Below are positions 36,855 to 54,333 of a stretch of 64,000 nucleotides of DNA, one piece after another (positions within the stretch are counted from its first letter, which is position 1; each line of letters opens with the position of its first letter). Position numbers and translations under genes: made by a program. A model generated the notes under the pieces. That model saw nothing but the letters and a program-made list of their open reading frames with translations. It ran no database searches and had not been told where the DNA came from. Source of the DNA: Candidatus Thorarchaeota archaeon (GTDB taxonomy: Archaea; Asgardarchaeota; Thorarchaeia; Thorarchaeales; Thorarchaeaceae); contig RDOC01000004.1 in NCBI GenBank assembly GCA_011364985.1, positions 96,001 to 160,000 on the forward strand. The letters are read 5' to 3'.

Positions 36855-36876
36855 TGGGGCCCGAAGGGGGAATCGA
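36855..36876 (-). pseudogene. 3' fragment of the disrupted tRNA-His (T-loop to CCA)
   Basis: TCGATTCCCCCTTCGGGCCCCA; 19/22 identical to the 3' end of the intact tRNA-His; TTCGGGC pairs with GCCCGAG of the 5' fragment. Confidence 0.8.
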
Positions 36877-36963
36877 GAATCAGACTCCCATTAGCTTGAG
36901 TTAGATTCTCCTTGTAAACAAACTTATCATCATATTTACATGTACTAAAATGATGATAAGAAA

Positions 36964-37194
36964 ATGGAGGCGGAATTGAAGGACATCTTGGAAAACGGAA
37001 AGGATTGGGAAAAAGCAAAAACGACTACCCCAGGACTATGGATTTGCAAAATGCCCGGAAAAGGCGACAACCCTCCGAGCCTTGTCATCATCATTAATCC
37101 AATTGAGAATATTAACCCGCCTACATCAAAGAAATTAGATAGAAGTAGATTCTTTGAAGTAACAATGTCAGTATATCGTTTCAACGATTCTTAA
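36964..37194 (+). CDS. small hypothetical protein, probably truncated
   Basis: Protein-like N-terminal 57 aa (LENGKDWEK..T.PG..I.KMP); C-terminus looks degenerate. Confidence 0.4.
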   Translation: MEAELKDILENGKDWEKAKTTTPGLWICKMPGKGDNPPSLVIIINPIENINPPTSKKLDRSRFFEVTMSVYRFNDS

Positions 37195-37251
37195 TGAGTA
37201 GTTTCGGCAATTTCGATACCACAGAGAAAAGAACTGACAGGTGGATAAGAT

Positions 37252-37266
37252 GGATAAGCTAATAAG
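37252..37266 (+). promoter_or_regulatory. putative promoter box of the intact tRNA-His
   Basis: GGATAAGCTAATAAG, 14/15 identical to GGATAACCTAATAAG (45598-45584, minus strand) upstream of the disrupted copy. Confidence 0.5.
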
Positions 37267-37304
37267 CCGCTGGCGAAAATCAGCTTCTTCGTTTGAGAAG
37301 CAAT

Positions 37305-37379
37305 GGCCCGAGTGGTGTACTGGCAGCATAAGAGATTGTGGCTCTCTTGAAACGGGTTCGATTCCCGTCTCGGGCCCCA
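37305..37379 (+). tRNA. tRNA-His(GTG), intact, with encoded G-1 and CCA
   Basis: G-GCCCGAG/CTCGGGC-C-CCA, anticodon arm AGAGA-TTGTGGC-TCTCT, T arm ACGGG-TTCGATT-CCCGT. Confidence 0.95.
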
Positions 37380-37454
37380 TATTCCATCTCATCACGAGGC
37401 GTAGCAGTTTTTTGAGATAATGTCTTTTGTTATCCAGATGACATTAATAATCCA

Positions 37455-37540
37455 ACGATAGCAAAGGAGCCACAGCCGTTCATTTTCAATTGGACCTGAT
37501 TTTGCATCAGGCTGTCCCTCCAGGAACGGCACTGGATACT
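37455..37540 (-). ncRNA. 3' part of a putative TnpB omegaRNA (pseudoknot scaffold plus guide matching tRNA-His)
   Basis: Hairpin TCCAG-TGCCGTTC-CTGGA whose loop pairs with GAACGGC (37481-37475); hairpin CCTGAT-GCAAA-ATCAGG; then TGTGGCTCCTTTG. 5' extent unknown. Confidence 0.6.
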
Positions 37541-39672
37541 CTGTCTTGAACATGAATGATGTTTCGGGCTGCATTCACATCAGCATGGAAATGTTCGTCA
37601 CACAATGAACAATAGAAGTATTCTCCACCCCTTCTCTCGACGGTGGACTGCTCATCTGCAACACGAACACCACGCTCACCACATACATGGCAGGTCTGAG
37701 AAGTGAACCTTGGGTTCACTGTCCACACACTGTATGGTGAGTGTCCAAGTGACACTCGCATATATCTCACTGTGTCTATAATCTTCCCCCATAGATTCGA
37801 ACTTAGGTTGTACGACAGGTCCTTTGACCCACCATGAGCCTGAAAGCTCCTGAGATCCTCGAAGAAAATCTTCTTGACTCGATGCTCCTCACAGAACCAG
37901 ACGGTCTTTGATGCAATGATTCGGGCGATCTCACGGTCAAGACGACGGATCTTTCTCCATAGGGCTTTGATATGCCTGTCCTTCTTGAGGATGTGTTTTG
38001 GATATGACAGTCCTGATCGTTTGCGTCCCCAATTGTTCCTCTTCCTGTCTGTAACTGATTGCAGATCATAGGCCTGCTTTCTCAAGAACTCTCTCTTCTT
38101 CACAAGCTGGTCCACTCTCAACAGGAGTTCCCTGTATTCCTTCCCCTTCATCACCGAGAGCACCACGGGAACTCTAATTCCTCTGTCAACACCAGCCCTT
38201 GCTTCATACTCTCTTTCTCCAAGAACCTGCTGTATCAAGAAATCATCAGGAGCCAAGAAAGGAATCTGCAATGAAATTCTATTCCCCCTCAGAAGAAGTC
38301 GGGGAGGAGCGCTCCTCCTTGAACTCCTGAGTTCTGTGATCTTACTCTGAAGTTTGGTAGTTTCTTCTCCATCCTTACCCTTCTTCTGTTTCACTTTGTA
38401 GAGTCTGTGTGTCAGATGCTGTATCTCAATGGTGTTCATGAGCTGTTGATGCATATCTTCGAACATCGCCGCTCGAAACCTCAACCGCTGGGCACGATGA
38501 CAATCTCCATTGTCCTCTGCGTTCTGAGCCTTGGCTCCGTCTTTGATCGTGGCACTGGACATCCAATCCAGAAATCGAAAAGCCAAGGTCTTTCCCTTGT
38601 ACGGAGAACTCTCATGATGAGTGCCATTAATTCCTGGAGGGAGCTTGATGTGAAAGAGAATCTCATTCTTTCTCTCTGGGTCGACACTAAACCAGTACCC
38701 CTGTCCAGGCGAGTTCTCTGTACTTGCACTGAAATCCAGACTATGACTCCGAAGGCATGGAACAGAGAATAGGTATCCATTCTCTTTCCAAACCTCAAGT
38801 TTCCTTGCAGTAAGAAAGAGGATGCGTTCTTTCTCAGAAACAGAATCCTGAAGCAAGGATGCTACATACTTGCGTTGTCTTCCCCTCCATTGTATCTTGA
38901 CTCCTTGTTCCTCAAGAATGTGGTCATCCAGAGCTAGCCTGAGCTGTCTTAGGACTCCAAGGGAGTGATGAAAACCAGCCCCATCGTTCTTTGCTGAATC
39001 GCATGCATCTCTCACTCTGCGGATAAGATTGGAGGGAATATGCTTTCTTCTCAGAAGTTGAAGTGCATCAGCAGCAGACTCGCTTAGCACCTTGATCGCT
39101 GCATTGAAGAGCTGCCTTCGTGTCCAGTCTGCCAGAAGTGTACGTCCAGCGTGCTCAAGGGCATTGCGATAGAGTCGCTCAAAGCATAATGCCTGAATTT
39201 CCTCGTTCTGCTGGTAATTCAAATCCCTCATCTTCCTGAGAAGGGTATAAGCTCGCCCCCTGTATTCGGATAGTTGCTGACCAAGTGACTGCACACGGTC
39301 ATTATCCTTGTATATTCTTGCAAGCATGAGATTCACTACTTGGACATAGTTGTCAAAGAGAGAACCAAGAAGCTGCAAGTCAACCTCGTCCGCTTTCTTC
39401 CCAGAGCGCTTGGGTATCAGCGTAAATATCTCTTGATTTGGTTTTCTTGATGAAGAAAAGAAGGGGTCAGGTCTTCGATTTCTCCTCCTCTTTGCAATAA
39501 CTCTGTCAACAGAGTTCAGAACAAACGACTCGACAAGATAGGATTTCGATGGGGGTATTATAAAGTTGCCATCAATTTTCTCTTGCTTCTTCTGAGTTTG
39601 AGTGACAGAACCAGATTTCTGCTTCCAGTGATGGCGCTGGATTTCTTGCTTCATCATATGTTCCTGAGTCAT
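37507..39672 (-). CDS. tnpB: large TnpB/Cas12-like RNA-guided RuvC nuclease (721 aa)
   Basis: RuvC-I GVDRG, RuvC-II FFEDL, VNPRFTSQTCHVCG...CSLC Zn finger, RuvC-III HADVNAARNI; D-E-D triad intact. Confidence 0.9.
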   Translation of the reverse strand: MTQEHMMKQEIQRHHWKQKSGSVTQTQKKQEKIDGNFIIPPSKSYLVESFVLNSVDRVIAKRRRNRRPDPFFSSSRKPNQEIFTLIPKRSGKKADEVDLQLLGSLFDNYVQVVNLMLARIYKDNDRVQSLGQQLSEYRGRAYTLLRKMRDLNYQQNEEIQALCFERLYRNALEHAGRTLLADWTRRQLFNAAIKVLSESAADALQLLRRKHIPSNLIRRVRDACDSAKNDGAGFHHSLGVLRQLRLALDDHILEEQGVKIQWRGRQRKYVASLLQDSVSEKERILFLTARKLEVWKENGYLFSVPCLRSHSLDFSASTENSPGQGYWFSVDPERKNEILFHIKLPPGINGTHHESSPYKGKTLAFRFLDWMSSATIKDGAKAQNAEDNGDCHRAQRLRFRAAMFEDMHQQLMNTIEIQHLTHRLYKVKQKKGKDGEETTKLQSKITELRSSRRSAPPRLLLRGNRISLQIPFLAPDDFLIQQVLGEREYEARAGVDRGIRVPVVLSVMKGKEYRELLLRVDQLVKKREFLRKQAYDLQSVTDRKRNNWGRKRSGLSYPKHILKKDRHIKALWRKIRRLDREIARIIASKTVWFCEEHRVKKIFFEDLRSFQAHGGSKDLSYNLSSNLWGKIIDTVRYMRVSLGHSPYSVWTVNPRFTSQTCHVCGERGVRVADEQSTVERRGGEYFYCSLCDEHFHADVNAARNIIHVQDRVSSAVPGGTA

Positions 39673-39848
39673 TGTTCTTCATCAGCAATATTAACTCAGA
39701 GTATTATAAAGTTATCAAGATTACTAATTTATTGTCTCTTATTTTTTCTAAAAAAGGGATATAAAGGCTTATAATTGAATTATATGTTATTTTGTTTACT
39801 AACGAAATTTAATTACATGTATGTCGTAGTGTTTTCTAAGGTATCCCC
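39673..39848. promoter_or_regulatory. AT-rich divergent promoter region for tnpB and the 1774-aa gene
   Basis: Markedly AT-rich spacer with TTATAA/TTTATAA-like boxes between divergent ORFs. Confidence 0.5.
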
Positions 39849-42800
39849 ATGAGAGGTAGAAAGGGAAGAATAAACAGCCCAAGTGGCATCCTGAGTACTG
39901 CAATCTACATGGGTCTGGTCGCCCTGTGTCGAATCTCTAGAAACAGAGCAAGTAAGAAGACTAGAAAGTTCCACCGAAGTATCGAGAAGATGTGGGCATC
40001 AGCCCGAGAAGACTACAAGGTCCAAAAGGGCCTAAGACAGAATGACTTCTCGCCTATCAAAAATGCGGAACCAAACATGCGAGGACAATTTCTAAAATTT
40101 GTCTGGACAAGCACAAAACGATATGGAAACAAGGAGTTCAAGCGCGTCTATAGCTGGTTGGAAGGAACGGTTGGACCTCTCAATGCACTTCTGAACTATG
40201 CTGGAGCTTGCCTTCGAGACCTTGCTATGGTTCTATATCCTTTTCCACAGCCTCAGAGGTTCCAAATTCGTGAATGGCCGAACGGGACTAGAAGGATTCT
40301 CACTGAATCAGAAGCTAGTGAGATTACAAAGGATGGTACAGTAAAAGTCCACTGGCGGAGTGGGTATGAGAGGAATGGCAAGAATCCTCGAGTGTTACTC
40401 TCGCATCCAACCTTGCCTAGTCTGGATTTTGTAGACATGATACGGACACATTGCGTCGAGCTCTGTCGACAATGTTTTATCTATCACGTCCCTAGGACTG
40501 AGGCACATCGATACATACGCCTCCTTATTCATCGACTCAAGCCCTTCCTTGACTGGATCTACACAAATGGACAAGAGGGCCGTTCTGGGTTCAATCCTCA
40601 TGCTGACCATGAACTTAGGAAGATGGTCCTTGAGATAAGGTCACTCTATAGAAAAAGTGCTAAGACTAGTAGACGTATCTCGGGGCAGCATAACGAGAAA
40701 CCCATTGACCTCTCTCTTGAGAAAATCCGCCAGAAGGGCATCAAACAATTGGAAGAATCCACTGATGCAAAGGAAAGAAAGCTGTTACAGAAATTCCTAA
40801 ACTATATCGATACTGCATCAGGAGTCGTAGCACGACGTGATATCGAGAAACTAATAGGTCAGATATTGGCTCTTAGTTCACGAGAGGGTACTACTTGGCA
40901 CAGGGTCCTGCTCTCAGACCTCCACCATCCGAAGTCCCTTCGTCAGGTCATTTTTTCTGGGGATCAGCTGCTTACTTCATTCTCATCAATCCTAATAGTT
41001 GCGGAACTCCCTGTTGCAGGACATTCCGGACGAGTGGACCTGACCATTTTCATCAGAAGAGAGATTGCAGGAGAGGTCTTGTGGACTCCGGTGATGATCC
41101 TTGAGATTAAGACAAAGGCAACCTTTGATTTCAACCTCTACGGATTTGAACTCAAGCGAAAAAGAAAGCATGCTGTCACCCCTGCTTTCTACGCATGGAA
41201 ACGCACTATGACTGGGAATGAGTGGCAGAGCATTGTCAATGCAAGTCCCGACCCAGATGCCCTTAATCAACTTCGAGCCTATGAACAGGAGCTTATTGCA
41301 GAGTATAGACAGTTAGCCGCTCATGACCCAGCTCCGCCCTCCTCGCTTTGGAAAGGAGTCATTGTCTTGGATGCTGAAGCGAGTCCGGAGGACATATTTC
41401 CAGCCGTCCAGTTTCTTCTTGAAGATCTGAAGACTGGGCTCCTACAGCAGCTGATTGATCGAGATTCCTTCATTGCTGTTACACCAAAATCCCTAGCTTT
41501 AGAAGGGGACGATCCCAGGGTTTCTCTACTAGTTTCTCCAGCCAGGGGACCTACTGGATTACTCGGCGAGATGGAGCCTCCCACAAGTCTACCCATTGAC
41601 GATCCCTTTGCTGACCGAGAGAGCGACGACCGACTTCTAACACTCTATGTTTCCATTCCTTCTCCAACCTCCTCGGGAGTGACTGCAGCAAGACTCTCTC
41701 GAAACTGGCATCTCCTTCATCATATTCAGGAGTGTATTGAAACAATCTCCTCCATAGAAGATGTGGTGTGGCTAGACCTTATGGGGGATTACAAGAGCGA
41801 TGAGCTTGTCAAGAAACGATTCGGCTTGCATTCCTTGAGACAGGAGAAGATGATATCCAAGAAGTCCTTTCGGGAACTCACCTCAATCCTTCAATCCATC
41901 AGGTTTCTCGACCTGAGTCCATTCATGAACGGGATTCTTACCGAAGGCGCACAGGCATTTAGCAGCCTACTAAACCATATTGCAGCTACAATCCCAGCTG
42001 AGAATGGAGAACAGATCATCATCCTTGATGGATGGACAGACCTGCAAGATATGATTCCAAGACATCAACAGCACCTACTTCGTATCCTTGAGCGAAAACT
42101 GCTTCATGCGCTCCCTCAATCAAATGTTAACATCATCTGGATTGATGACGGTGTGCCCCATACTAAGATGAACCCAGACTACCAGCGTCAGTGCATCAGT
42201 CCTCTTAGGTATGACTCCCTCCGCAAGACTCATGTTGATGAGTTCATCTACAATATGCCAATACCCTCTCCTAGGTTCTGGTGGACAAATCCACAACATG
42301 ATGATATTCGAATCATTGTGCAAGACACCCCGACCAGAGAAAACCCCTGGAAGACGGCAATCTACGTTCCACAACTTTCGGGACTTGCAGAGAAGTTTAG
42401 AGGTCTTGCCAAGCGGGACAGAGTCATTGCTCCTAAGGAAATAGCACAGGATTTGGAAGGGAAGAAACCTATGTATGGACGAGATGTGACCCTGTGTCGC
42501 ATTCATCCATCTTCAGGTATTCTCTCAGAGGATGAACTCTCTGACCTTCTAGAAGATGCGCTCACTCTTGTGCCCAGTACCCTGAGAGAGAGGATGCCCC
42601 GACTAGAAGAAGAGTGTGAAGAAATCCAGATTTCTGAAGATGCTATCTGGCAATCTGTTATCCAGACGACTAGCTCTGCAAGCGGTTCTACGATGGAAGA
42701 AAGGATGAGAATTGATGTAACAAGACCACCCCCACGACCAGGGGGAACTGACCGATACATCGATGTTCTCATCAATGCTAAAAGAGAGCGGATTACAAGA

Positions 42801-45173
42801 TCTTGGTCCTATGACCAGACCCCCAAGCAATTTCCTGATGATGCAGATGAGTCTTATCTGTGTACATTCCCTCCAGAGTTGACGATCTCTGATGCAGTAG
42901 AGATCGACTCCATTGAAACCCGTGAACGAGAGCTTGGACGGCTCAAATCAGCAACCAGATACCTGAAGCAACAGACCTTCCTCTCACAGAAACTAAGGAA
43001 AATGTGCAGGAGGATTGAGAGGCATTGCAATCAGCAATTTGCTCTCATTAAAGACAACCCCTCACTGAAGACCAGTAACTTCTTCTTTAAAGCACTCAAA
43101 CAGGTCGAAACAATTATCCTAGAGGACACGCTAGGAGCAACTATCTGGGAAACACTCCGTTCATCTCGACAAGAACTACTTGATGTTCTGAACTCAGACA
43201 ACAGACAATTCTTAGAGGAGGTCATGAAGGAAACACCTGATGCTCTCCTGCTCTATGGCAATAATCTTGTCCTAGCAATTGTTTCTGTTCTCAAGGACAG
43301 CAACTTGTCTTTAGCAAAGCCTCTCTGGGAGTCTGTTGCTAGGTGGACATTATATCAGATAGGAATGAACAGTGACAATGATATCACAAAGACAGTCTAT
43401 AGCTTTCGAGCAATTCTCTCCAACCTGAGAGCGCGCATCAATACTCTTTCGCATCTCAATCTCCCTGAGATGATTCTGGAACAAGAGCAGGTTGGTGCGA
43501 TCATTTGGATGGAGTCTGAGGCCAGGTATGATGCACTTCTTCTAATATCTCATGATAATACTGGCTTTCTAATTGGCATTATTGAGGGACTAAACAATAG
43601 ATGGATTCCAGCAAAATGGCACTCCTGTAAGACAACTCCCCAGCAGTTAAAACACCATGTGCAGAACGCTCTCACATCCACAGATAGGACACCTGTTATC
43701 ACGACCACGGTTAGAGATTTGAGTGTCCTCCTGATACCTGCGTTGACCGAGGATGATGAACTCGTCTGGAGCTGCTTCTCTCTGAAGCATGGTAGACCCA
43801 GCGGACGACGAAACAGTATTCCATGGATAAAGCTAGAACCTGCTGAATCTCTGGCAGCGCCCAGCCACGTACCTGAGATCCCAGACGAAATTGACGAAAC
43901 TCTCCGGAAGATAATTCGGGTCAAGCACAGCATCACTCCTGTAAAGCTCCTCGTTGGTATAGATGAGGAGCTTGAGGTCTACGAAGTTCAGTTAACGGGC
44001 GAAGGCATTGAAGAACGACGTAAGTTCAGACGAACCAGAGAAGCGGTTCGATTTCTCAGAACTCCAATCAGAGAGGGAGTGGGGTATCGGTGGCAGGGAC
44101 AGACTCTCACTTGGGACCATCGCAAAGATATCGATTATGGCGATTCACTCTCTTTTCTCAGACCTCTTATTCATCGGAGCAAGTTCTACCCCGATATCTA
44201 TCATTATCCAAAGACATGCAAGGACCTCCTTACCGCAAGCAAAGGACATGAGATAATCATGGTCATCAGTCAAGAGGGACCGACATACCGGGTCAAGTTT
44301 CAGGATCTCCCAGACCAATCTGCTCTGAGAGAACTGGAGATAGCGGAACTGGACATCCATGCACTGGGCCTACTTGCAGAGTGCAAGGAACTCTTTGACC
44401 TCGGAAGCAGGACTTGGCACCCATTAGTGCTAGATGTCAACGCTATCATGGACCTCTGGTTCCCCAAGCTTCATGAATACCCCCGGCTAATTGAGGCGAT
44501 TCAGGCCGCTGATGTTAACGAGTTCAACTGGTCAAGAGAAACATGGTTCATAGAGATTAGGCTTTGGAGAAATGAACTGAGATGGTGCATCATGTCGAAG
44601 ACAACAGGACTGCCTTGGATGAACAGGGAATTCACATATATCCTTACTCTTGGAAGAGAGCCTGATAAGGAGTTGGAGGCTTTCAAGGAGGTGGTCACGG
44701 CCATTGTTCAGCCAGAGCATCTCTGCAATCTGGATGACGAGCTTGAAACGTACAAGGTGACACTCAAGGAGAGGTATAGTGAATACCTTCGGACTGTCAG
44801 TGTGGAAGACGCGGATGAGAGAAAAGCTGAAGATGAGCTGGAGAAAGCTGCTGCTATAGGCGCTCCATGGGAGAGAATAGCGTTCAGGTATAGCGGAATG
44901 AAACTCAGGAGAATAAAAAGAAACACCGTGGTTGTTGTTTCCTTGGTGTCCGGCGAAGAAGAAGCAGAGGTGTACGTGGTGAGGGATGTCCAAAGGTATG
45001 TGAATGAATCTCGGTCAGCAGGTGCAATCCACTCAGAACCTGTTGATGATGAGGTGAAGGAGAGTCTTGCAGACTATGAGTTTGAGAAGGGCGAGCTTGA
45101 AAGAATCAAGGCGGCTGTCAGGAAAGTGTTGGAGGAGGAAGGAGTCAGGTTTTCTAATGAACAGGCCTTTTAG
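39849..45173 (+). CDS. 1774-aa protein with PD-(D/E)xK nuclease domain and possible degenerate P-loop domain
   Basis: AELPV...GRVDL...ILEIKTK...QLRAY (E..D..ExK plus QxxxY); later SPTSSGVT and IIILDG. Confidence 0.7.
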   Translation: MRGRKGRINSPSGILSTAIYMGLVALCRISRNRASKKTRKFHRSIEKMWASAREDYKVQKGLRQNDFSPIKNAEPNMRGQFLKFVWTSTKRYGNKEFKRVYSWLEGTVGPLNALLNYAGACLRDLAMVLYPFPQPQRFQIREWPNGTRRILTESEASEITKDGTVKVHWRSGYERNGKNPRVLLSHPTLPSLDFVDMIRTHCVELCRQCFIYHVPRTEAHRYIRLLIHRLKPFLDWIYTNGQEGRSGFNPHADHELRKMVLEIRSLYRKSAKTSRRISGQHNEKPIDLSLEKIRQKGIKQLEESTDAKERKLLQKFLNYIDTASGVVARRDIEKLIGQILALSSREGTTWHRVLLSDLHHPKSLRQVIFSGDQLLTSFSSILIVAELPVAGHSGRVDLTIFIRREIAGEVLWTPVMILEIKTKATFDFNLYGFELKRKRKHAVTPAFYAWKRTMTGNEWQSIVNASPDPDALNQLRAYEQELIAEYRQLAAHDPAPPSSLWKGVIVLDAEASPEDIFPAVQFLLEDLKTGLLQQLIDRDSFIAVTPKSLALEGDDPRVSLLVSPARGPTGLLGEMEPPTSLPIDDPFADRESDDRLLTLYVSIPSPTSSGVTAARLSRNWHLLHHIQECIETISSIEDVVWLDLMGDYKSDELVKKRFGLHSLRQEKMISKKSFRELTSILQSIRFLDLSPFMNGILTEGAQAFSSLLNHIAATIPAENGEQIIILDGWTDLQDMIPRHQQHLLRILERKLLHALPQSNVNIIWIDDGVPHTKMNPDYQRQCISPLRYDSLRKTHVDEFIYNMPIPSPRFWWTNPQHDDIRIIVQDTPTRENPWKTAIYVPQLSGLAEKFRGLAKRDRVIAPKEIAQDLEGKKPMYGRDVTLCRIHPSSGILSEDELSDLLEDALTLVPSTLRERMPRLEEECEEIQISEDAIWQSVIQTTSSASGSTMEERMRIDVTRPPPRPGGTDRYIDVLINAKRERITRSWSYDQTPKQFPDDADESYLCTFPPELTISDAVEIDSIETRERELGRLKSATRYLKQQTFLSQKLRKMCRRIERHCNQQFALIKDNPSLKTSNFFFKALKQVETIILEDTLGATIWETLRSSRQELLDVLNSDNRQFLEEVMKETPDALLLYGNNLVLAIVSVLKDSNLSLAKPLWESVARWTLYQIGMNSDNDITKTVYSFRAILSNLRARINTLSHLNLPEMILEQEQVGAIIWMESEARYDALLLISHDNTGFLIGIIEGLNNRWIPAKWHSCKTTPQQLKHHVQNALTSTDRTPVITTTVRDLSVLLIPALTEDDELVWSCFSLKHGRPSGRRNSIPWIKLEPAESLAAPSHVPEIPDEIDETLRKIIRVKHSITPVKLLVGIDEELEVYEVQLTGEGIEERRKFRRTREAVRFLRTPIREGVGYRWQGQTLTWDHRKDIDYGDSLSFLRPLIHRSKFYPDIYHYPKTCKDLLTASKGHEIIMVISQEGPTYRVKFQDLPDQSALRELEIAELDIHALGLLAECKELFDLGSRTWHPLVLDVNAIMDLWFPKLHEYPRLIEAIQAADVNEFNWSRETWFIEIRLWRNELRWCIMSKTTGLPWMNREFTYILTLGREPDKELEAFKEVVTAIVQPEHLCNLDDELETYKVTLKERYSEYLRTVSVEDADERKAEDELEKAAAIGAPWERIAFRYSGMKLRRIKRNTVVVVSLVSGEEEAEVYVVRDVQRYVNESRSAGAIHSEPVDDEVKESLADYEFEKGELERIKAAVRKVLEEEGVRFSNEQAF

Positions 45174-45174
45174 A

Positions 45175-45320
45175 CTAATGAGCACACAACTCGTAGACCC
45201 TTCATGAGAAGAAGGCGATGAGAGATATCATGTCAGAAACCAGCTCCTTCTGTGGACTCTGCTGTTCTGGTATATAGAGAATCTCAACACCCACTCCATA
45301 GTCCTTGAGGATCCCTAGAA
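45175..45320 (-). pseudogene. tnpA: C-terminal remnant of IS607-family TnpA serine recombinase
   Basis: ILKDYGVGVEILYIPEQQSPQKELVSDMISLIAFFS*RVYELCAH*, resembling the IS607 GV.I.V...S.EEELVEDL.SI..SFSGRLYG.R pattern; TGA at 45202-04. Confidence 0.75.
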
Positions 45321-45500
45321 GAATGCTGGTGACCTTGACATCCTACTCGGTGTTTAGGACTGACCTAGTCTTTAAAGCAGTCATCTTACCCTTTGTCAAG
45401 AAAAAAAGCAGTGTTTTTTTCTCAAGGATTTTCAGTGGGAAGCTAATATTGAACATACGGAAACACGAGCGAAGAACGAGGTGAGATACATGCAGAGATT

Positions 45501-45539
45501 AGCCACAATCCTTTATGTTACCATTACACCACTCGGGCC
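45501..45539 (-). pseudogene. 5' half of the disrupted tRNA-His(GTG)
   Basis: GGCCCGAGTGGTGTAATGGTAACATAAAGGATTGTGGCT; 34/39 identical to the intact copy; ends just past the anticodon loop. Confidence 0.88.
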
Positions 45540-45687
45540 ATTGTTTACTAAGAAGCCAGCGATGACCAGCTCGTTTGTTTTTTCTTATTAGGTTATCCGT
45601 TTAGCAACTCCACAAGCATCCCAAACAAAAGCATGGCATGATTCAAAAACATCTTCCATCAATCGGAAGCGAGGAGATTGTAATAGG

Positions 45688-46585: not shown

Positions 46586-47503
46586 CTATATCCCTGCCTT
46601 TTCCAACATCTGTCTGAGCTTAATCTCGCCCAGATACGGGTACTTCAAGCTTGAGTACGAAACCAAGGTTGCGGTTGACCGTACATGGTCCAGTCCTCTG
46701 ATTTTCTTTGCAATTGCCTCTGCCTCATACAAAGTATCAACCACAAACTCTGCAAACAGAATGGAATCTGTTGCCGATACCCAAGGACTCCAAAACTCAA
46801 CTGGATACTCATTATGAAGCCATTCGATCATATCATTCATGGAGACCTTCTTCTCGTCTAAGTCAATTCTGATATTGATGTTTACAAGACCGCCTGCCGC
46901 AAGATCAGGTCTAGCTGCAAACCAAGCGGCCTCCTCTTCAGCAATTTCATCAAGGGCACGGCGTACGGTTTTTGAGGACAACCCAGACTCCCTTGCAATA
47001 TCGGCAATGAGTCTTCGAGGGGCATCAATTAGAGCTTTGAGAACCTTGAGATGCACTTTCTTGAACCTAAACTTCAAGCCTCTGTCATTAGTCAAAAGTG
47101 GATGCATCTCAACCTTCAGCGTTTCATTCAAACCTCTTAGGAAGGCTCCAATCTCATGAAGCATCTCTGTACCAATGTATTGTCCCCAGACCAAGTAAGC
47201 ACCACCGCCCACAGTTGCAAGGAGACTGATATGACCAATCATCGAATTTCTACCCATGATATCAACAAACTCATCAATGTTCTCAGTACCATCGGTGACA
47301 ACAATTGCCTGAAAGTCGTTAGCTCCTATTACCTCCCTATCTAGAGCAACGAAGAATTTGGCCACAACACCTGTATCAATCAGACCTGCAACTCTATTCT
47401 TAACTGCATTTGGACTTAGACCTGTTTCTCTTGCAAGGCTTTCATAACTCACTCGGCAATTCGTGCAGAGATTGGAGAGGATCTTCTTGTCAATTCTGTC
47501 CAA
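46586..47503 (-). CDS. tandem Lrp/AsnC-type HTH regulator
   Basis: Two HTH units (D.IDKKIL..L..NCR.SY..LA; LKALIDAPR..IADIA..SGLS.KTVRR.L). Confidence 0.85.
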   Translation of the reverse strand: MDRIDKKILSNLCTNCRVSYESLARETGLSPNAVKNRVAGLIDTGVVAKFFVALDREVIGANDFQAIVVTDGTENIDEFVDIMGRNSMIGHISLLATVGGGAYLVWGQYIGTEMLHEIGAFLRGLNETLKVEMHPLLTNDRGLKFRFKKVHLKVLKALIDAPRRLIADIARESGLSSKTVRRALDEIAEEEAAWFAARPDLAAGGLVNINIRIDLDEKKVSMNDMIEWLHNEYPVEFWSPWVSATDSILFAEFVVDTLYEAEAIAKKIRGLDHVRSTATLVSYSSLKYPYLGEIKLRQMLEKAGI

Positions 47504-47565
47504 TGGTAGACCTCCGTGGAAATATCCGACAAGGGAATCCTAATATTGCTAGATTGATATCTGCA

Positions 47566-47922
47566 TTACGAAGGGCCACTCAATACGCCCTTCAAGTTGT
47601 CTATTTCCTCTTCCAAATCATCAACCTTTTCAGAGAGTGCGATAACGGAATTTAGTAGCATGGAAATGATATAACCATGATTCACTGAGTATCCCTGTTC
47701 TCGCTCTATCAATTCAGCCTCTTCTAGCCTCCGAGCAGCATTAGTCACAGACTGCTTGGACAACTTCCTCTCCTTGATTGGTCGGTTTACCGTTTCTCGG
47801 ACTTTGGTGGGAGAAATCACCGGACCTTTCAAGGGAGCCAGCAGACTATGAAGCAGCAGCAGTCCTGCACTCATACGTGGATTCCTGATCTTCTCAAATG
47901 CCAATTCCAGTTGATCCTTCAA
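47566..47922 (-). CDS. winged-helix protein with C-terminal coiled coil
   Basis: LSKQSVTNAARRLEEAELIER; LSEKVDDLEEEIDNLK. Confidence 0.65.
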   Translation of the reverse strand: MKDQLELAFEKIRNPRMSAGLLLLHSLLAPLKGPVISPTKVRETVNRPIKERKLSKQSVTNAARRLEEAELIEREQGYSVNHGYIISMLLNSVIALSEKVDDLEEEIDNLKGVLSGPS

Positions 47923-48155
47923 TGTTTTGCGCCCCCGATGATTTCATGATTACGTGGAGCAGTAAACGCATAGTCCATGAAAAAGCTTCTTGTTATTAGA
48001 AACCGACCAGAAATGATACACTGCGGAATTCTGAGTAGAGCAACGTTTACTGACTCAGAGGTAACCTCGAAAGATGAATTGCTATTTCAAATCGTATCTG
48101 ATAGGTCATGTCAAAACAATGAAAAGACAGTTACTCTGAAATGCTTTGACTTCAA

Positions 48156-48842
48156 TTGCAGACAGACATCAACCGAATAGTGTTCATCCCGGTAATCCAC
48201 ACGGACAAAGAGAGTGTGGATAGGGTGATTCAGACAGTGAATTCAGTGAAACCCGACGTGGTAGCCGTTGAACTAGATAGAGAACGGTACTATCAGTTGA
48301 CAGAGGCAAAAGCCGGCAAGAATGCGACACCGCAAAAAATGGCAGAAGACGCTGTACAAGGCCTTATGCAAAACCTAGCGATACTGGAACAAAGACTGGG
48401 GGAGACAACTGGGTCAAGTGTGGGAGAGGAAATGATCGCCGCGATTGAGGAAGGAAGAAGAATTGGGGCCAAGATCGCTCTTGTGGACAGACCACTTCAT
48501 CTCACAGTGCAGGCCCTGATGTCTGTGCCTTTAGATGAGATCTACAGGTTAACGGGTCTTGTCCCAGAAGCAAATGAAGAGATCGTTCAAGGGGATTCCA
48601 AGGACATTTTTGGGATATTAAAGGAAGAAGGAGCAATTGCAGACTTGATGAAGGACTTTGAAAACGAGTTTCCTTTGACCGCAGAAGCACTTATTCATCA
48701 GCGAGACCGCTATGTGGCAAATGCTCTTGTGACGATCTTAGATGACGTTGAGGGGAGAATTGTCGTCGTATTAGGAGCTGGGCATATCAACGGCGTTCAG
48801 AAAGTACTCAAGGAGCTTTTAGAAAAACAAAGCGCATCCTAG
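48156..48842 (+). CDS. TraB/PrgY family protein
   Basis: H...S, PD.VAVELD..R, G.EM..A, LVDR, RD..., VV.LGAGH..G. Confidence 0.88.
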   Translation: MQTDINRIVFIPVIHTDKESVDRVIQTVNSVKPDVVAVELDRERYYQLTEAKAGKNATPQKMAEDAVQGLMQNLAILEQRLGETTGSSVGEEMIAAIEEGRRIGAKIALVDRPLHLTVQALMSVPLDEIYRLTGLVPEANEEIVQGDSKDIFGILKEEGAIADLMKDFENEFPLTAEALIHQRDRYVANALVTILDDVEGRIVVVLGAGHINGVQKVLKELLEKQSAS

Positions 48843-49489
48843 AGTCCGAGTCCCTCGATCAGTCTGTCGATGCCAGTGTCACTCTTGGCGCTTACACTAT
48901 ACACGGGAATTCTTGCATCAACCTCTCGTACATCATTGACCAAGGAATCAACATCAACTCCGATTGCCTCTGCAAGATCTATTTTGTTTATGACAACCAT
49001 ATCCGACCTCTTTATTGTTAGAGGATGCTTTCTAACCATGTAAGGACCCTCTGTGACGCTTACTACGACAACTTTCTTGTCAACACCAAGAGAATAACCT
49101 GCAGGACAGATTAGATTGCCAACATTTTCAATAAATACGAGATCGTAGAGCGATAGGTCGACATCATTTAGTGCAACACGAACCATTCGGGCATCTAAAT
49201 GGCAGGCAGTTCGTGTATTAATCTGAACTGTATCCACTCCGTGAGATGATACACGGTCAGCATCAATAGTAGTAGCAAGGTCACCCGCAATCATAAGAAT
49301 TCGATACATGCCCTTAAGGCGGTCACAAAGAGCTTCGATGATTTGGGTCTTTCCTGTACCAACAGAGCCCATGATGTCGATTGCTGTGATTCCATGATCC
49401 TTGAATGTAGCTGCATTCATGGCTGCAGCTTCTTCATTCGCACCAAAGAGGTCCTTCCTAATATCGATTTCAACGGTTCGTTCTGGCAT
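48839..49489 (-). CDS. hypB: hydrogenase nickel incorporation GTPase HypB
   Basis: GSVGTGKT, GDLAT..DA, CHLDA, IENVGNLICPA, SVTEG, NKIDL. Confidence 0.93.
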   Translation of the reverse strand: MPERTVEIDIRKDLFGANEEAAAMNAATFKDHGITAIDIMGSVGTGKTQIIEALCDRLKGMYRILMIAGDLATTIDADRVSSHGVDTVQINTRTACHLDARMVRVALNDVDLSLYDLVFIENVGNLICPAGYSLGVDKKVVVVSVTEGPYMVRKHPLTIKRSDMVVINKIDLAEAIGVDVDSLVNDVREVDARIPVYSVSAKSDTGIDRLIEGLGL

Positions 49490-49495
49490 TGTTAA

Positions 49496-50074
49496 TCAGC
49501 TCTCAAGTTCCTCAAGTTGAAGGGAAACCATTTCAGGATATAGGTAGTTGCCAAGGATTGGTCGGACGATGGTCCTTTCAATGGCTAGTGCGAGAGCTGC
49601 CCAACCGAATGCCTGTACCATATCCACAACTGCCCCTAGGAGAATCAGTTCCGTAGGCAAGAGGAATATCGACAGGATGACTAGGTCAGCCAAGAAACCG
49701 CCAATAATTCCACCACCAAGGATTGCCATTGCAGTGTATTTCATGCTATCACGCTCTCTGGTCATATGAACGGCATAGCCAGTCCCGACACCCAATGCCA
49801 TATTTCCGATGAAGGGCACAAGTGGATAGGTAGTTCCGGAAATGATACCACCAAGGCCTACAATAAACCCAACGAAAATCCCTCCGGGAACGCCACCCAC
49901 AACTCCACCCAAAAGGGAGAAAGTGAACGCAGGGGTCAGCTCAGCAACATCAGGAACAAGCATGAACCAAAGAGTGGACCTAACAACAATGCCTACTGCT
50001 GCAATCATAGCAAGAGTGGTTATTGTCACAGTATTCAATCGAATTGGCACCGCCACCATCGCAAAAGGCTCCAC
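49496..50074 (-). CDS. ECF transporter S-component-like membrane protein
   Basis: Multiple TM helices, G..GG..G..VG pattern. Confidence 0.6.
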   Translation of the reverse strand: MEPFAMVAVPIRLNTVTITTLAMIAAVGIVVRSTLWFMLVPDVAELTPAFTFSLLGGVVGGVPGGIFVGFIVGLGGIISGTTYPLVPFIGNMALGVGTGYAVHMTRERDSMKYTAMAILGGGIIGGFLADLVILSIFLLPTELILLGAVVDMVQAFGWAALALAIERTIVRPILGNYLYPEMVSLQLEELES

Positions 50075-50080
50075 TTGAGT

Positions 50081-50458
50081 TTACTCTGAGTTGTCCGGCC
50101 AGCTCTCCAACAAGAACTTTCTGGTTTGATTGTACCACTCCTCAAGCTGAGCGAGTACTTGATCTCTGACCTCTGTGGAAGACACAGCGCTATACACGTA
50201 GTAATAGCCGCCACGGTCGAATGTCCTTTCCTCCTGTTCGACAAGGCCTTTCTGGCACAGCTTTTTCAGCACACGTTGAACAGTACTTCTATCTCGGCCG
50301 ACCTTTGATGCAATCTCTTTCACCGTCAGCGGCCCAGACATAAGCGAAAAGAGAGCATCAATCTCAGTACTCCTAAGACCAAAAGCACAGCAAAGGAGAT
50401 CCGATGGTTTATCAAACCCTTTCTCAAACAAGCCCACCAAGGCACTTCTAGTTGTCAT
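50081..50458 (-). CDS. TrmB-like HTH transcriptional regulator
   Basis: C.FGL, LTVKEIA..VGRDRSTVQR.L..L...GLV, GGY.YVY. Confidence 0.85.
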   Translation of the reverse strand: MTTRSALVGLFEKGFDKPSDLLCCAFGLRSTEIDALFSLMSGPLTVKEIASKVGRDRSTVQRVLKKLCQKGLVEQEERTFDRGGYYYVYSAVSSTEVRDQVLAQLEEWYNQTRKFLLESWPDNSE

Positions 50459-50579
50459 TCCAAATATAAAGCCAGAAGATTCGCCAGATAAGGGTTGTGC
50501 AATGGCTTGCACACTCGAATGGGCATAATACTGGCCTTCAAAAGATATGAAGTCAATAGCTGGATGGGTGCAAATCTAA

Positions 50580-51029
50580 ATGGACTTCAGCGCTCTAAGA
50601 GACGAGATGACTAGAAATCCTTGGGAAAGAACAGAAAGCGAAGAAAGACCATTGCAACCGGTCAATCTGGCTCCATTGAAAGGGGTTATTGAGACTGACG
50701 CAGTCAGATCCAAGGTTCTCAGAGTCCTAATCGAAGATGGTACTTGGGTCACCACTGCGGATCTTCTAAAAGAGGCACGAAAGGAGAGACCAATTCTAGG
50801 TGCAGTTTCTATTGGGACGATTCTCAACGGTTTAAACAACTTGGTGGCCTCGCGACTGATTCTTAGCAGAACCTCTTCAGCCGCAGGTACAGACTGGGCA
50901 GAGTGGAGGATAAATCCAGATTTGCTTAAACCAACAAGGAAGCTGCTGCAAATGCTGACCAGACCTAAATTCGAAAAGATGCTCCTTAGCAAGAATCAAT
51001 CAGAGGAAATTGGTGAGGTCAGGGAATAA
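50580..51029 (+). CDS. winged-helix DNA-binding-like protein
   Basis: VRSKVLRVL...W.T..DL...L..L....LI...WRIN. Confidence 0.55.
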   Translation: MDFSALRDEMTRNPWERTESEERPLQPVNLAPLKGVIETDAVRSKVLRVLIEDGTWVTTADLLKEARKERPILGAVSIGTILNGLNNLVASRLILSRTSSAAGTDWAEWRINPDLLKPTRKLLQMLTRPKFEKMLLSKNQSEEIGEVRE

Positions 51030-51066
51030 TAACGATGTATACTCAATATTGAGTAGCTAGAATTAG

Positions 51067-51822
51067 ATGAGTAGACTTATTAGGATGTGTTTGGGCGGAA
51101 GACCCATGCAGCATCAGAATAAGAACGAGGTGTCCCCCTCTACGGTTCGTGAGGGGAATGATGAAAATGAAATGGAAATGGAGATGCTTGGCATATCCAA
51201 GAGCAGCGAGAAAGTGAAAAAGGTGGCTGTAGCAGCCATTATGGCATCTCTTTCTGTGGCGGTAACGCCAATCGCCGCAGGCATCCCCAGAATCCCAGGA
51301 TTTGGAATTGCTATATTCGACCCAATCTCGCTCTTCTGGATGATTGCCTTTCTGATTGGAGGATTTTGGGTGGGACTTGTCAGCATGATAACGGGAGCAA
51401 TTATGTTGAACTTCTTCGACCCAACGCCCATTTTTGGGCCACTTCTGAAGTTCCTTGCAACGTTTCCGATGGTAGTACTACCATGGCTTGCAGTTCGCAA
51501 GACTGGAGATAAAAGGCATAGTCGACTTCTATCCGTTGCTGCGAAGGTTGCTCAACGAAAGGAGCCCTCCCATCAAGGGGGAATCATTCTATCTGGGGAA
51601 CGTGTTTTTGGTGCTTTGATGATGGTCTCCTATTTGATCAGAATCTCAATGATGGTTCCAGTAAATCTTGTCGTTGTTCCCTTCATATGGGGTGTGACTG
51701 ATGCGGGTTTCATCATCACCTATACTCTCATTCTAAACACCCTTCAGAGCTTCTGGGATGCTTTGATTCCATTCATCGTGGTTCATCGAACCCCAGTATT
51801 CAGGAATTATGGTATGTGGTAG
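51067..51822 (+). CDS. ECF transporter S-component-like membrane protein
   Basis: A..A.LS, P.IP.F....FDP, GP..KF.AT; true start probably downstream. Confidence 0.65.
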   Translation: MSRLIRMCLGGRPMQHQNKNEVSPSTVREGNDENEMEMEMLGISKSSEKVKKVAVAAIMASLSVAVTPIAAGIPRIPGFGIAIFDPISLFWMIAFLIGGFWVGLVSMITGAIMLNFFDPTPIFGPLLKFLATFPMVVLPWLAVRKTGDKRHSRLLSVAAKVAQRKEPSHQGGIILSGERVFGALMMVSYLIRISMMVPVNLVVVPFIWGVTDAGFIITYTLILNTLQSFWDALIPFIVVHRTPVFRNYGMW

Positions 51823-51914
51823 ATCTCCAGCAGAAGTACTCGCGGAGAAGAGGGAATCCTAGAAACCGCTATATGCGTCACACCGTATGGTGACCCAATC
51901 TGGAATGAGAAACA

Positions 51915-52733
51915 ATGCGAAGATGCGAATATTGTGACAGTCCAGTTCCCGCAGATGCAACTGTCTGTCCAGTTTGCAAGGAGAAAATTGCTCAGGAGGC
52001 CCTAGAACGCATTCTTCCGCTCTTGAAAAGGCCTGATGCGCCAGATGTTCGAGAAATGGGTATCCTTGAACGTACATGGAATGTGATTAGAAGACCTGGG
52101 GCGGCCTTTCGTGACATCGGGCAGCGGCCAGATGCAGCAGGACCGCTTTTGGTAGTACTTGCTAATGCACTAATTGTTGCAGGGTTGTTTCTCGCGCTAT
52201 CATCGAAGTTTTACAGCCGGGTCCTTGTAAATGCTACCACAGGCACATATGCAGACATCAGCATCATCTTCCTTGACGGTGGCTCTTCGGTATTAATAGC
52301 AGCTCTCGTATCGATTCTTCCAAACATAATGCTAGGTATGCTCTATCTCTTTGTTGGCAGTGCTTTTGCTCATTTGGCCTTCAGAATAACAGGGGGAACA
52401 GGGAGCAAGATGAAAACGCTTTCTGTTGTTGGTTATAGCATGATTCCCGTGGTTCTATTTCGGCTTATTGCCTTGGCTCTTGTATTCGTTGCAACTCTAC
52501 CCATTCAGGTATCAGGTATTGGAGACCCTAACATCCCAGAAATCATCGCCTCATTGTATTCTTCTAGTACTTGGATGATGATTGATTACATAACGGTAGC
52601 GGCCTTCTTCTGGACAGGATTCCTTTTGATATTTGGAATCAGAGAAGCGCATGATACATCAACGTCCTGGGCGTTCTTGGTTGCACTAGGATGTATGATT
52701 GTCCTCATCTGGACCTTTTGGCAGGTTCATTAG
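51915..52733 (+). CDS. Zn-ribbon plus Yip1-domain membrane protein
   Basis: CEYC...CPVC; W.VI..P..AF..I, AHL..RI.GG.G, VGYS..P, W...L...GI. Confidence 0.75.
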   Translation: MRRCEYCDSPVPADATVCPVCKEKIAQEALERILPLLKRPDAPDVREMGILERTWNVIRRPGAAFRDIGQRPDAAGPLLVVLANALIVAGLFLALSSKFYSRVLVNATTGTYADISIIFLDGGSSVLIAALVSILPNIMLGMLYLFVGSAFAHLAFRITGGTGSKMKTLSVVGYSMIPVVLFRLIALALVFVATLPIQVSGIGDPNIPEIIASLYSSSTWMMIDYITVAAFFWTGFLLIFGIREAHDTSTSWAFLVALGCMIVLIWTFWQVH

Positions 52734-53701
52734 ATTGCGAGGATTATGTCAAACAAAGGAATCGCAACAAATGCAACTAGACCGATAAGAGCACCAATCT
52801 TGTCAAGTGTACTGCCGATGAGAAGTCGCTTTGCGTCTGTGGGTCCTGTCAAGGGGGCGATACCAGCCCCTGTGACAACGACACAACCTGATATTAGTAG
52901 GGGCCAAAGAACCCAGTTGGCAAATCCAAGCAACCACACAGAAGCAAAGCAAATCACGCCTACGGCATTTAGGAGAGCCGCAATAAAAGCAGCTGTTTCG
53001 TGACCATAAACCCGAGCGATTGTTCTCACATCACGAATAGCATCACCCTTCACATCCTCTGCACCCTTGATTGTCTCTCTGGCTTGAAGAATCATGAAAG
53101 CTGTCAGAAAGAACAGCCATACTGGCAAAGGAATTACAAATGCTCGGGTAATGCCTCCGGCAACTTCTCCATATACTACGGAGCCATAGACTATCCCGAA
53201 GGCAAAAGAAAAAGCAACCATGATATTGCCTGCAAGTCCAAGTGATTTTACTTTTGCAGCATAAGCGTAAGCAATAGCTACAAACACTATCACTACAAAC
53301 AGGCTAACATATCTTCCTTGCGTCAGATTGACTGCAATACCAAGCCACGAGAAGAATACACCAATAATGACCCAGAATGTAACATAATACCAAGCCTGCT
53401 TAATCGTCATTCTTCCGCTTGGTAAGGCACGATGGGGTCTGTTTATTCTGTCAATCTCTATGTCATAAATATCATTCACAATATTGCCGCCAGCAGCAAC
53501 TGCGAAATATGTGATATAGGAGTATATGAAGAGATCAAGAAAATCCCATAGGCTTGTGGTTAGAGGGAATAGCTTGAATCCCATCGCGATTCCAGCTATT
53601 ACTGTAAGACCACCGATGAAGCAGTTTTGCGGTCGGATAATTGTCAGGAACGCCTTTGCATCAAAACGGGGTTCCTCAGGCTGTATCCTTGGCTCAGTCA
53701 T
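52730..53701 (-). CDS. digeranylgeranylglyceryl phosphate synthase (UbiA family)
   Basis: RP.NC, NDIYDIEIDRINRP.R.LPSG, RE..K..EDV.GD. Confidence 0.9.
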   Translation of the reverse strand: MTEPRIQPEEPRFDAKAFLTIIRPQNCFIGGLTVIAGIAMGFKLFPLTTSLWDFLDLFIYSYITYFAVAAGGNIVNDIYDIEIDRINRPHRALPSGRMTIKQAWYYVTFWVIIGVFFSWLGIAVNLTQGRYVSLFVVIVFVAIAYAYAAKVKSLGLAGNIMVAFSFAFGIVYGSVVYGEVAGGITRAFVIPLPVWLFFLTAFMILQARETIKGAEDVKGDAIRDVRTIARVYGHETAAFIAALLNAVGVICFASVWLLGFANWVLWPLLISGCVVVTGAGIAPLTGPTDAKRLLIGSTLDKIGALIGLVAFVAIPLFDIILAI

Positions 53702-53821
53702 CGCAGAACATTCCTCCACTATGTTCCCACGCTCAGCTGCGATTAAAGACTTCCGTTAAACATTGGAATAACCCAATGACTCTTATCTCAGTCAATTCTC
53801 GACCATATCATGTGAGCTGCA

Positions 53822-54328
53822 ATGTTCGAAGACTTACCACGTGAAACTCTTTTGAAATTGATTGATGCCTACGCCAAGGCCTGGCAGGCAATGGATGGGG
53901 CATACTTCCTTGCCCTTGAGAAGAAGTATGGGATAAATGTAGCAATAGAGATGGATGAAGAAGCCTGGCGTATCTTCTCTCCTATTGAGGCAAAGAGAAT
54001 CATGAGAGAGTTCGGAATCCCGGAGAATGGAGGACTCGAGGCATTAGAGAAAGCATTGAACTTCAGAGTTTATGCTGCACTTAACACTCAGTCAGCAGAA
54101 TATGTAGATGAGAACAAGCTCATCTTCAAGATGCATGAGTGCAGAGTGCAGGTGGCGAGGAACAGGAAGGGTCTTCCCGATTTCCCATGCAAGTCAGTGG
54201 GCCTGATCGAATATGAGGAGTTTGCGAAGACCTTAGATCCCCGCATTAGGACACGATGCATTAGCTGCCCTCCAGATCCTCACCCCCCAGACTATTATTG
54301 TGCATGGGAGTTCACGTTGGAGAAGTGA
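53822..54328 (+). CDS. DUF6125-like protein
   Basis: W.A.DG.YF..LE..YG...A...D, CRVQ.AR.RKGL..FPCK, C..CPPD.HP....C.WEF. Confidence 0.7.
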   Translation: MFEDLPRETLLKLIDAYAKAWQAMDGAYFLALEKKYGINVAIEMDEEAWRIFSPIEAKRIMREFGIPENGGLEALEKALNFRVYAALNTQSAEYVDENKLIFKMHECRVQVARNRKGLPDFPCKSVGLIEYEEFAKTLDPRIRTRCISCPPDPHPPDYYCAWEFTLEK

Positions 54329-54333
54329 AATAA

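Follow-up and report, generated by a model that had tools for sequence, protein, structure and literature searches.

A Thorarchaeota aCas1–TnpB element that breaks a tRNA-His gene, carries a foreign copy and appears to use tRNA-directed guides

A 64,000-nucleotide (nt) window of contig RDOC01000004.1 from Candidatus Thorarchaeota archaeon (GCA_011364985.1; a 74%-complete genome, here G000) contains a resident tRNA-His gene broken by an insert that encodes a large TnpB, a giant Cas1-like protein (aCas1) and a complete, inverted tRNA-His of a foreign allele type. We consider it probable, from the sequences compared below, that this arrangement reflects guide-directed, allele-specific takeover of a tRNA gene by a tRNA-specialised derivative of the Thorarchaeota aCas1–TnpB element. 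The aCas1–TnpB pair is a computationally described class, for which the window now supplies an empty site, a guide register fixed by structure and a footprint in numbers; tRNA-directed guides, a travelling spare tRNA, the target-adjacent motif (TAM) and the break footprint were not found for this class in the literature searched. Coordinates are window positions, and the labels G, L and C stand for the relatives' genomes, loci and contigs in this analysis.

Results

A single insertion in the resident tRNA-His gene

The initial annotation of this stretch had described three tRNA-His pieces, an inverted complete tRNA-His, an IS607 tnpA remnant and open reading frames (ORFs) of 721 and 1774 aa, all of which lie where it had placed them (Table 1). 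Its proposal that the element had broken the resident gene was borne out by an empty site. Among contigs of the probable source sample (runs X1 and X2), one with a depth of 13 joins position 36876 to 45501 through 14 other letters, giving an intact tRNA-His and showing one insert. The bases lost at insertion span TAM+8 to +21. Repeat search and end comparison revealed no terminal inverted repeats at the insert ends, and end comparison no target-site duplication, 14 bp having been lost instead. The 5′ remnant is syntenic with the intact tRNA-His of relatives. We rejected the idea that the 3′ piece is a T-loop att remnant of a separate island, as the empty site joins it directly to the 5′ piece. 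An inverted repeat at 36875–36911 crosses the right junction, its last two bases being those of the tRNA remnant.

The empty-allele contig carries one difference in the 5′ part of tRNA-His, which the graph fork probably places at nt 28; the intact sample allele would then be G28–C42, where the remnant in the window carries A28 and the guide U42. The flanking contigs share the depth of the insert (~21, compared with 13 for the empty-allele contig), which makes a sister lineage in the same sample the probable owner of the intact allele.

The inverted tRNA-His is the sole complete one found in the 74%-complete genome, a point that the initial annotation had proposed to check. Its nt 8–58 are identical to those of the intron-bearing tRNA-His of G090, from another genus, and it mismatches the guide at positions 9, 10 and 14, with GAGAT at the TAM position. 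It had at first been called a recoded replacement; this says too much, since a foreign allele taken at random is just as distant from the guide, and the spare is better described as a foreign gene that is not provably recoded. At loci L127–L166, tRNA-His introns occupy several positions (37/38, 52/53 and ~55–58) that differ between close relatives, and the tRNA-His alleles differ mostly by compensated stem changes.

Only two long ORFs (721 and 1774 aa) are present in the insert, neither of them PolB. No TnsB-, TnsC- or TniQ-like ORFs were found there, and the ORF list, Pfam and NCBIfam gave no integrase-family match among the insert ORFs. The small cargo ORF belongs to a small protein family (L128:15402–15716; G000 contig C3, 8213–8503), of which a homologue occupies the same place beside a tRNA-His 3′ remnant in G017.

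Table 1. Features of the insert and of the broken tRNA-His gene (window positions)
Feature	Position	Strand	Remarks
3′ remnant, resident tRNA-His	36855..36876	-	nt 54–75 including CCA; starts 22 nt past the TAM
Whole insert	36877..45500		8,624 bp; takes the place of 14 bp (nt 40–53) of resident tRNA-His
Small cargo ORF	36964..37194	+	76 aa, probably frameshifted
Upstream motif of carried tRNA-His, probable promoter	37253..37266	+	common to His genes across the family
Complete inverted tRNA-His(GTG), foreign allele type	37305..37379	+	ARAGORN; Rfam 55.7 bits
Predicted guide	37461..37474	-	14 nt, equal to tRNA-His nt 33–46, A28–U42 allele
3′ part of omegaRNA scaffold / right end	37475..37535	-	hairpin and long-range helix closing at 37475
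Large TnpB, 721 aa	37507..39672	-	RuvC D496/E605/D698 intact
aCas1, 1774 aa	39849..45173	+	divergent from tnpB across 176 bp
IS607 serine transposase tnpA, C-terminal remnant (pseudogene)	45166..45324	-	contains stops
Possible decayed IS607 left-end repeat (tentative)	45391..45400	-	~100 nt inside the insert, without GGGT core
5′ remnant, resident tRNA-His	45501..45539	-	nt 1–39: putative TAM AGGAT and first 7 protospacer bases; allele A28
Upstream motif of resident tRNA-His, probable promoter	45584..45597	-	conserved; one mismatch to family motif

A structured scaffold sets the register of the guide

Across the TnpB family, a conserved and structured scaffold overlaps the end of tnpB and closes in a conserved right end, after which the sequence, that of the guide, becomes variable. 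In an alignment of 32 loci, the last six bases of the right end pair with an upstream stretch. The three scaffold helices have 98% of cells paired, with 5 pairs changed on both sides; slid controls reached at most 48%, and none of 500 shuffles was as high on cells paired. Covariation was needed to see this, the folding of the single omegaRNA sequence being no better than shuffles (z 0.01). Because the compensated helix closes at 37475, the guide starts at 37474. A guide starting one base earlier, out of register with the tRNA, was rejected, the last right-end base being base-paired.

The middle tRNA piece comprises 13 nt (37474–37462); set against the empty allele with its variable loop, the match extends to 14 nt, ending at 37461. 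A search for the 13-mer gave a single hit in the window, none in any of 100 shuffles, and exactly one in the genome. The initial annotation had counted it among three pieces of a split gene, while pointing out that it lies where TnpB guides lie. On the scaffold covariation the second remark prevails: the piece is, as far as sequence can tell, the TnpB guide and not a leftover third of the tRNA, and it is best read as brought in with the element rather than as a remnant of the split gene. Seven of its bases are also present in the 5′ remnant, so one gene has not simply been divided into the three pieces. In G014 the guide is antisense and mismatched to its broken allele.

In total, 74 guides of the 721-aa TnpB family, which is present in 41 of 86 family genomes, were compared with tRNAs over 14 positions. 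Eight match a tRNA at 13–14 of 14 positions, 100 shuffles giving at most 11, and GGGC stands at the TAM position in six of those eight tRNA targets. The IS607-type left ends read NGGGT in 13 of 14 cases, the family motif being GGGY. About 63 of the 74 guides have no tRNA match, and the majority in this family look like ordinary sequence flanking an insertion.

The TnpB of the insert looks catalytically active, as the initial annotation had held: D496, E605 and D698 are invariant in 19 homologues and a zinc finger is present. The protein matches Pfam Cas12f1-like_TNB, and NCBIfam guided_TnpB with an E value of 4e-19 that is below the cut-off.

The giant protein is an aCas1

Sequence searches with the 1774-aa protein (Pfam, NCBIfam, PDB) returned nothing significant and an Atlas feature search only nuclease–NTPase leads below 0.9, so that its Cas1 identity was revealed only by folding. 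Residues 1–254 have the fold of the Cas1 catalytic domain, with E74, H186 and D196 (VIA Z 13.1, root-mean-square deviation 3.8 and 177 aligned to Cas1 8flj; Z 10.9 to the casposase 6opm); the AlphaFold2 model of residues 1–900 has a predicted local distance difference test score of 85.7. A nuclease motif of the RecB/Cas4-type PD-(D/E)XK kind follows (D397, E419, K421, Q474 and Y478, that is D-E-K plus QxxxY). The Cas1 triad is found in 44 of 44 homologues and the RecB/Cas4-type motif is invariant or nearly so. Foldseek assigned residues 592–844 to a degenerate RecA/KaiC-like fold, its Walker A motif being without the conserved lysine. The 1774-aa protein is thus the Asgard aCas1 of the already catalogued aCas1–TnpB class, an identity that the earlier description of it as nuclease-like had missed.

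A weak second Cas1-like helical bundle (Z 5–6) was seen at residues ~1010–1190 (window 42880–43420); it may be another Cas1 domain, without activity, that makes up an internal pseudo-dimer. No structural match to the C-terminal half exceeded Z 6.5.

Traces of an IS607 ancestor

The tnpA remnant matches residues 147–199 of the intact IS607 TnpA on contig C21 of the same genome (53 residues, 70% by tblastn). The right end of the window copy lies 598 bp inside the insert, its TnpA-binding repeats are degenerate, the left end is absent at the junction and there is no shared core. Contig C21 (~46740–54860) holds a complete IS607-type copy with intact tnpA, aCas1 and a TnpB of the 721-aa family, which sits at GGGT in an apparent host gene with no tRNA nearby. 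Intact tnpA is present at seven aCas1 loci with ordinary flanks, and such IS607 copies have GGT cores. At tRNA-guided loci no intact tnpA was seen in the DNA available, and the right-end repeats are shortened or degenerate in eight tRNA-guided copies.

tRNA guides recur beside complete, mismatched tRNAs

Elements homologous to this one were found repeatedly with a tRNA guide and, beside it, a complete tRNA of the same kind that mismatches it. The initial annotation had named the lack of such an association as a refuting result, and on this count it was not refuted. At 18 loci of two TnpB families, a His, Lys or Arg guide is accompanied by a convergent complete tRNA of the same kind. The 721-aa family contributes 13 loci (three His, nine Lys and one Arg) and a second, 537-aa family contributes five His loci. 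The His loci are those of G000, G021 and G102 for the 721-aa family and of G014, G017, G032, G066 and G071 for the 537-aa family. They come from four genera, several congeners keeping a single His in native orientation, and share one order: the 5′ remnant or native upstream genes, a reversed aCas1 where present, tnpB, the His guide and a convergent complete His. At the Lys and Arg loci, two of the Lys loci being near-identical, the convergent tRNA lies 45–180 nt behind the right end. At the tRNA-Lys of G001, short 3′ tRNA ends nearby were excluded from the Lys remnants as possibly belonging to other tRNAs. Overall, aCas1–TnpB loci were found in 17 of 26 family genomes and in one of the 124 other genomes of the phylum that were searched.

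The adjacent tRNA has 2–5 mismatches in the first 14 guide bases in all 13 scored pairs, two of them by way of an intron, and the guide is therefore not a plain duplicate of the neighbouring tRNA. The allele of another genome fits the guide with 0–1 mismatches in 12 of the 13 pairs. The guides of G014 and G017 are antisense, and at L248 the guide is followed by a collinear tRNA-Leu 3′ end. Besides the window, the inverted-spare layout is seen for Lys in G018; a tRNA in native orientation with the element behind it is seen for Lys in G102 and for Gly on contig C16 with 3′ remnants.

Several further arrangements were noted. In G071 (L153:870–960), two tRNA-His guides for different alleles each lie behind the same short right-end repeat, as a two-spacer mini-array. 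In G000, contig C16 (48803–58700) carries aCas1 and a 537-aa TnpB convergent with tRNA-Gly, 3′ remnants of which lie on the far side of aCas1; contig C15 (184471–189284) has a broken aCas1 and a 537-aa TnpB between tRNA-Asp and tRNA-Lys, with a guide antisense to tRNA-Asp nt 1–14 whose start is the same in G020, G094 and G077 (L207, L208 and L211); and on contig C17 (204546–205570) the right end of a 537-aa TnpB remnant runs into the antisense 5′ half of tRNA-Arg. In the 537-aa family (L081:7672–9285 in G014), a glycine occupies the usual RuvC-II position and a glutamate precedes the zinc finger, which we take to resemble the rearranged site of Fanzor-like TnpBs. At L083 and L088 (G015), L131 (G083), L132 (G090) and L144 (G011), 5′ tRNA-His remnants or decayed copies are followed by a complete same-direction His with no TnpB in view; the two remnants in a row in G090 suggest repeated rounds. 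At L032:2687–2700 (G014), a close TnpB homologue upstream of an apparent ribosomal protein S6e gene has a guide that agrees with the His anticodon arm, in antisense, at 12 of 14 positions, with no tRNA nearby, a match that may be chance.

The breaks lie at a narrow distance from the TAM

In six broken tRNAs, at five target sites and on both strands, the TAM-side remnants keep 7, 6, 10, 10, 8 and 10 protospacer bases. On the far side, tRNA sequence picks up again at +22 in G000 and at +19 in G014, and no shared motif was found across the junctions. The ISDra2 TnpB cuts 15–21 bp from its TAM (PMC8612924), a zone that the 14-bp loss in the window overlaps. At the level of sequence, the break positions are tied to the guide, and the lost bases together with the motif-free junctions are easier to explain by joining at a break set by the guide than by the chemistry of casposases or IS607.

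Discussion

In the takeover that we propose, an IS607-type ancestor would have entered a GGGY site within a tRNA gene, whereby tRNA sequence became the guide. Mobility by TnpA would then have been lost while the scaffold and a guide of 13–19 nt were kept, and the element would have persisted beside a poorly fitting tRNA allele. If DNA comprising aCas1, tnpB, guide and tRNA entered a relative, TnpB could open or cut the better-matching allele there, and the segment would be joined at the break with a loss of 7–14 bp and without defined ends, aCas1 most likely processing or joining the ends. Only recipients that gained a complete tRNA would survive. An inverted orientation would be retained, as a copy in direct repeat would recombine with the 5′ remnant; such recombination would give the other layout observed, that is, a complete tRNA, the element and a 3′ remnant. 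The layouts seen would then be both outcomes expected from insertion in either orientation. We infer cutting, resistance, the transfer route and the role of aCas1 in this scheme.

Several points weigh against it. The main local weakness is the TAM of the window target: GGAT departs from GGGY at one base. One guide mismatch is found in the intact sample allele, which apparently comes from the sister lineage, so the exact pre-insertion allele is unseen. The TAM-side junctions, at +6 to +10, are nearer than the known non-target-strand cut at +15, and the 6–10 window was recognised only post hoc, from six cases of which two are congeners and one (G066) has its guide and its remnant on separate contigs. 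In distance from the guide, the adjacent alleles do not exceed random foreign ones, and the chance that all 13 have at least two mismatches, calculated from allele pools, is ~0.09. In the window the spare is mismatched at positions 9, 10 and 14, whereas the other 12 pairs have mismatches in the first four. Finally, family members with intact tnpA behave as ordinary IS607 elements.

Two of the alternatives overlap with takeover. Integration might itself be RNA-guided, as a special case of it: TnpB would mainly mark the site and aCas1 would join the element end to the displaced strand 6–10 nt past the TAM, in the manner of CRISPR-associated transposons (CASTs) but built on Cas1. The Cas1 triad invariant in 44 homologues, a casposase among the fold matches, the narrow junction window and the tRNA-guided copies without TnpA all agree with this, and CASTs home to tRNAs through a dedicated guide (PMC8730458). 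Yet neither a terminal motif nor an inverted repeat is common to the junctions and the target loses bases instead of having them duplicated, unlike in casposase products (PMC5137440), aCas1 also occurs inside IS607 copies with intact TnpA and GGT cores, and the TnpB appears catalytically competent. We regard such guided integration as possible, though rather doubtful. Cas1 and a Cas4-type nuclease make up an adaptation pair, and the second overlapping alternative takes the same combination in aCas1 as a proto-CRISPR guide-acquisition module that writes tRNA spacers behind the scaffold, breakage being due to TnpB and host repair. The two His guides behind the same short repeat in G071 and the keeping of aCas1 in copies that already have TnpA would suit it; however, that two-guide case is the only one seen, no regular arrays were found and most guides of the family look like plain insertion flanks, which makes this explanation unlikely.

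An equally improbable course is two local events, in which an IS607 element entered the anticodon loop, its flank serving as the guide, and the foreign tRNA came later with a 585-bp insert that truncated the flank. The pieces are collinear on one strand, guide U42 pairs with remnant A28, the rarer allele, as would suit a local origin, a tnpA remnant is present, and L248 offers a guide followed by a collinear tRNA-Leu 3′ end. What speaks against it is that IS607 uses a short core (10.1101/2023.11.20.567912) while seven bases are duplicated here, that the left junction has neither a left end nor a GGGT core and the site is GGAT, and that the unit of guide and convergent tRNA recurs at 18 loci, including those of G014 and G017, whose antisense guides cannot be collinear flanks. 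The remains of an integrase island, with att sites in the anticodon loop and T-loop and the short piece as an att duplicate, are a reading largely refuted and very improbable: tRNA-His is a hotspot, relatives have short 3′ repeats and there is a 7-base overlap in the anticodon loop, but no insert ORF matched an integrase family, bases at the site were lost and not duplicated, and an att duplicate should fit the adjacent tRNA best, in conflict with the mismatches in 13 of 13 pairs. Misassembly or a chimera of two strains is hardly to be credited. The genome is metagenome-assembled, a sister allele is present in the sample and 36877–39655 is uncovered by the listed sample contigs, which are not independent of the assembly, though such a hole is no proof in either direction; against this, a single contig (39687–45542) crosses the left junction at flank depth, the graph forks exactly at 36876 and the same layout is found in other assemblies from four genera.

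With a concrete target, guide, TAM and insertion footprint, the function of the aCas1–TnpB class becomes directly testable. If takeover is correct, this would be a selfish element of natural origin, guided by RNA, that captures an essential gene by replacing its allele. Fast allele turnover and intron gain in archaeal tRNA genes would then have a cause open to testing, since in G014 and G071 the introns lie within the stretch matched by the guide. Should the joining be the work of aCas1, TnpB would be tied to a Cas1 integrase in a setting that has no CRISPR array, a link of interest for how type V systems arose and for programmable DNA insertion. It is conceivable, if fairly speculative, that TnpB and a Cas1-family integrase form a natural RNA-guided integration system with spare-tRNA rescue, and that the resulting arms race between tRNA alleles has made the tRNA genes of Asgard archaea more diverse and their introns advantageous.

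Comparison with known systems

The closest relatives are the catalogued aCas1–TnpB loci of Asgard archaea (Cas1H-Asgard-1 and -2; Altae-Tran et al. 2023, PMC10691335), which likewise pair a Cas1-like giant protein with TnpB and comprise two TnpB groups. The main text of that paper does not say which group carries the GTTCACTCA motif; in our data it lies behind the 537-aa family and not in the 721-aa family. The same main text contains no mention of tRNA, proposes aCas1 as a transposase and places a possible guide upstream of GTTCACTCA. Here, by contrast, the tRNA-matching stretch lies ~20 nt downstream of GTTCACTCA in the 537-aa family and directly after the base-paired right end in the 721-aa family, and a spare tRNA travels along. 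No literature on Thorarchaeota with TnpB, or on TnpB targeting tRNA in archaea, was found, most subscription papers being outside the search.

With IS607 and IS605 TnpB systems the element shares a serine tnpA, a G-rich TAM, a right-flank guide and cutting of the empty allele as the presumed activity (PMC8612924; 10.1101/2023.11.20.567912). It differs from them in that tnpA and the left end have decayed, the insert reaches beyond both ends and a spare tRNA lies between guide and host flank. Casposons also use a Cas1-family enzyme, a likeness that here concerns fold and residues only, and the A. boonei target overlaps a tRNA gene (PMC5137440, PMC6614799). Unlike casposons, the present insert has no terminal inverted repeats, target-site duplication or PolB, its tRNA is broken and replaced, and an RNA guide is present.

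CASTs home the transposon near a tRNA gene with Tn7-like proteins. Those of types V-K and I-F resemble the element in having a dedicated short guide against a tRNA gene (PMC8730458). In the present case, however, the nuclease looks active with its RuvC intact, the tRNA is destroyed and a second allele supplied, and Tn7-like ORFs are absent from the insert. Homing endonucleases of introns and inteins, and synthetic cleave-and-rescue drives, cut the empty allele of an essential gene while function is kept in carriers; here rescue would come from a whole foreign tRNA gene and not from splicing, and targeting would be RNA-guided. The toxin–antidote drive first suggested for this locus, with a target that is cut and a carried allele that resists, fits as a sequence pattern; no perfect guide target is left in this genome that would point to ongoing action. 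A natural parallel is the disrupted tRNA-Thr of Caldiarchaeum subterraneum, in which a 5′ tRNA fragment, a mobile insert and a nearby complete allele with an extra intron occur together (PMC3293823).

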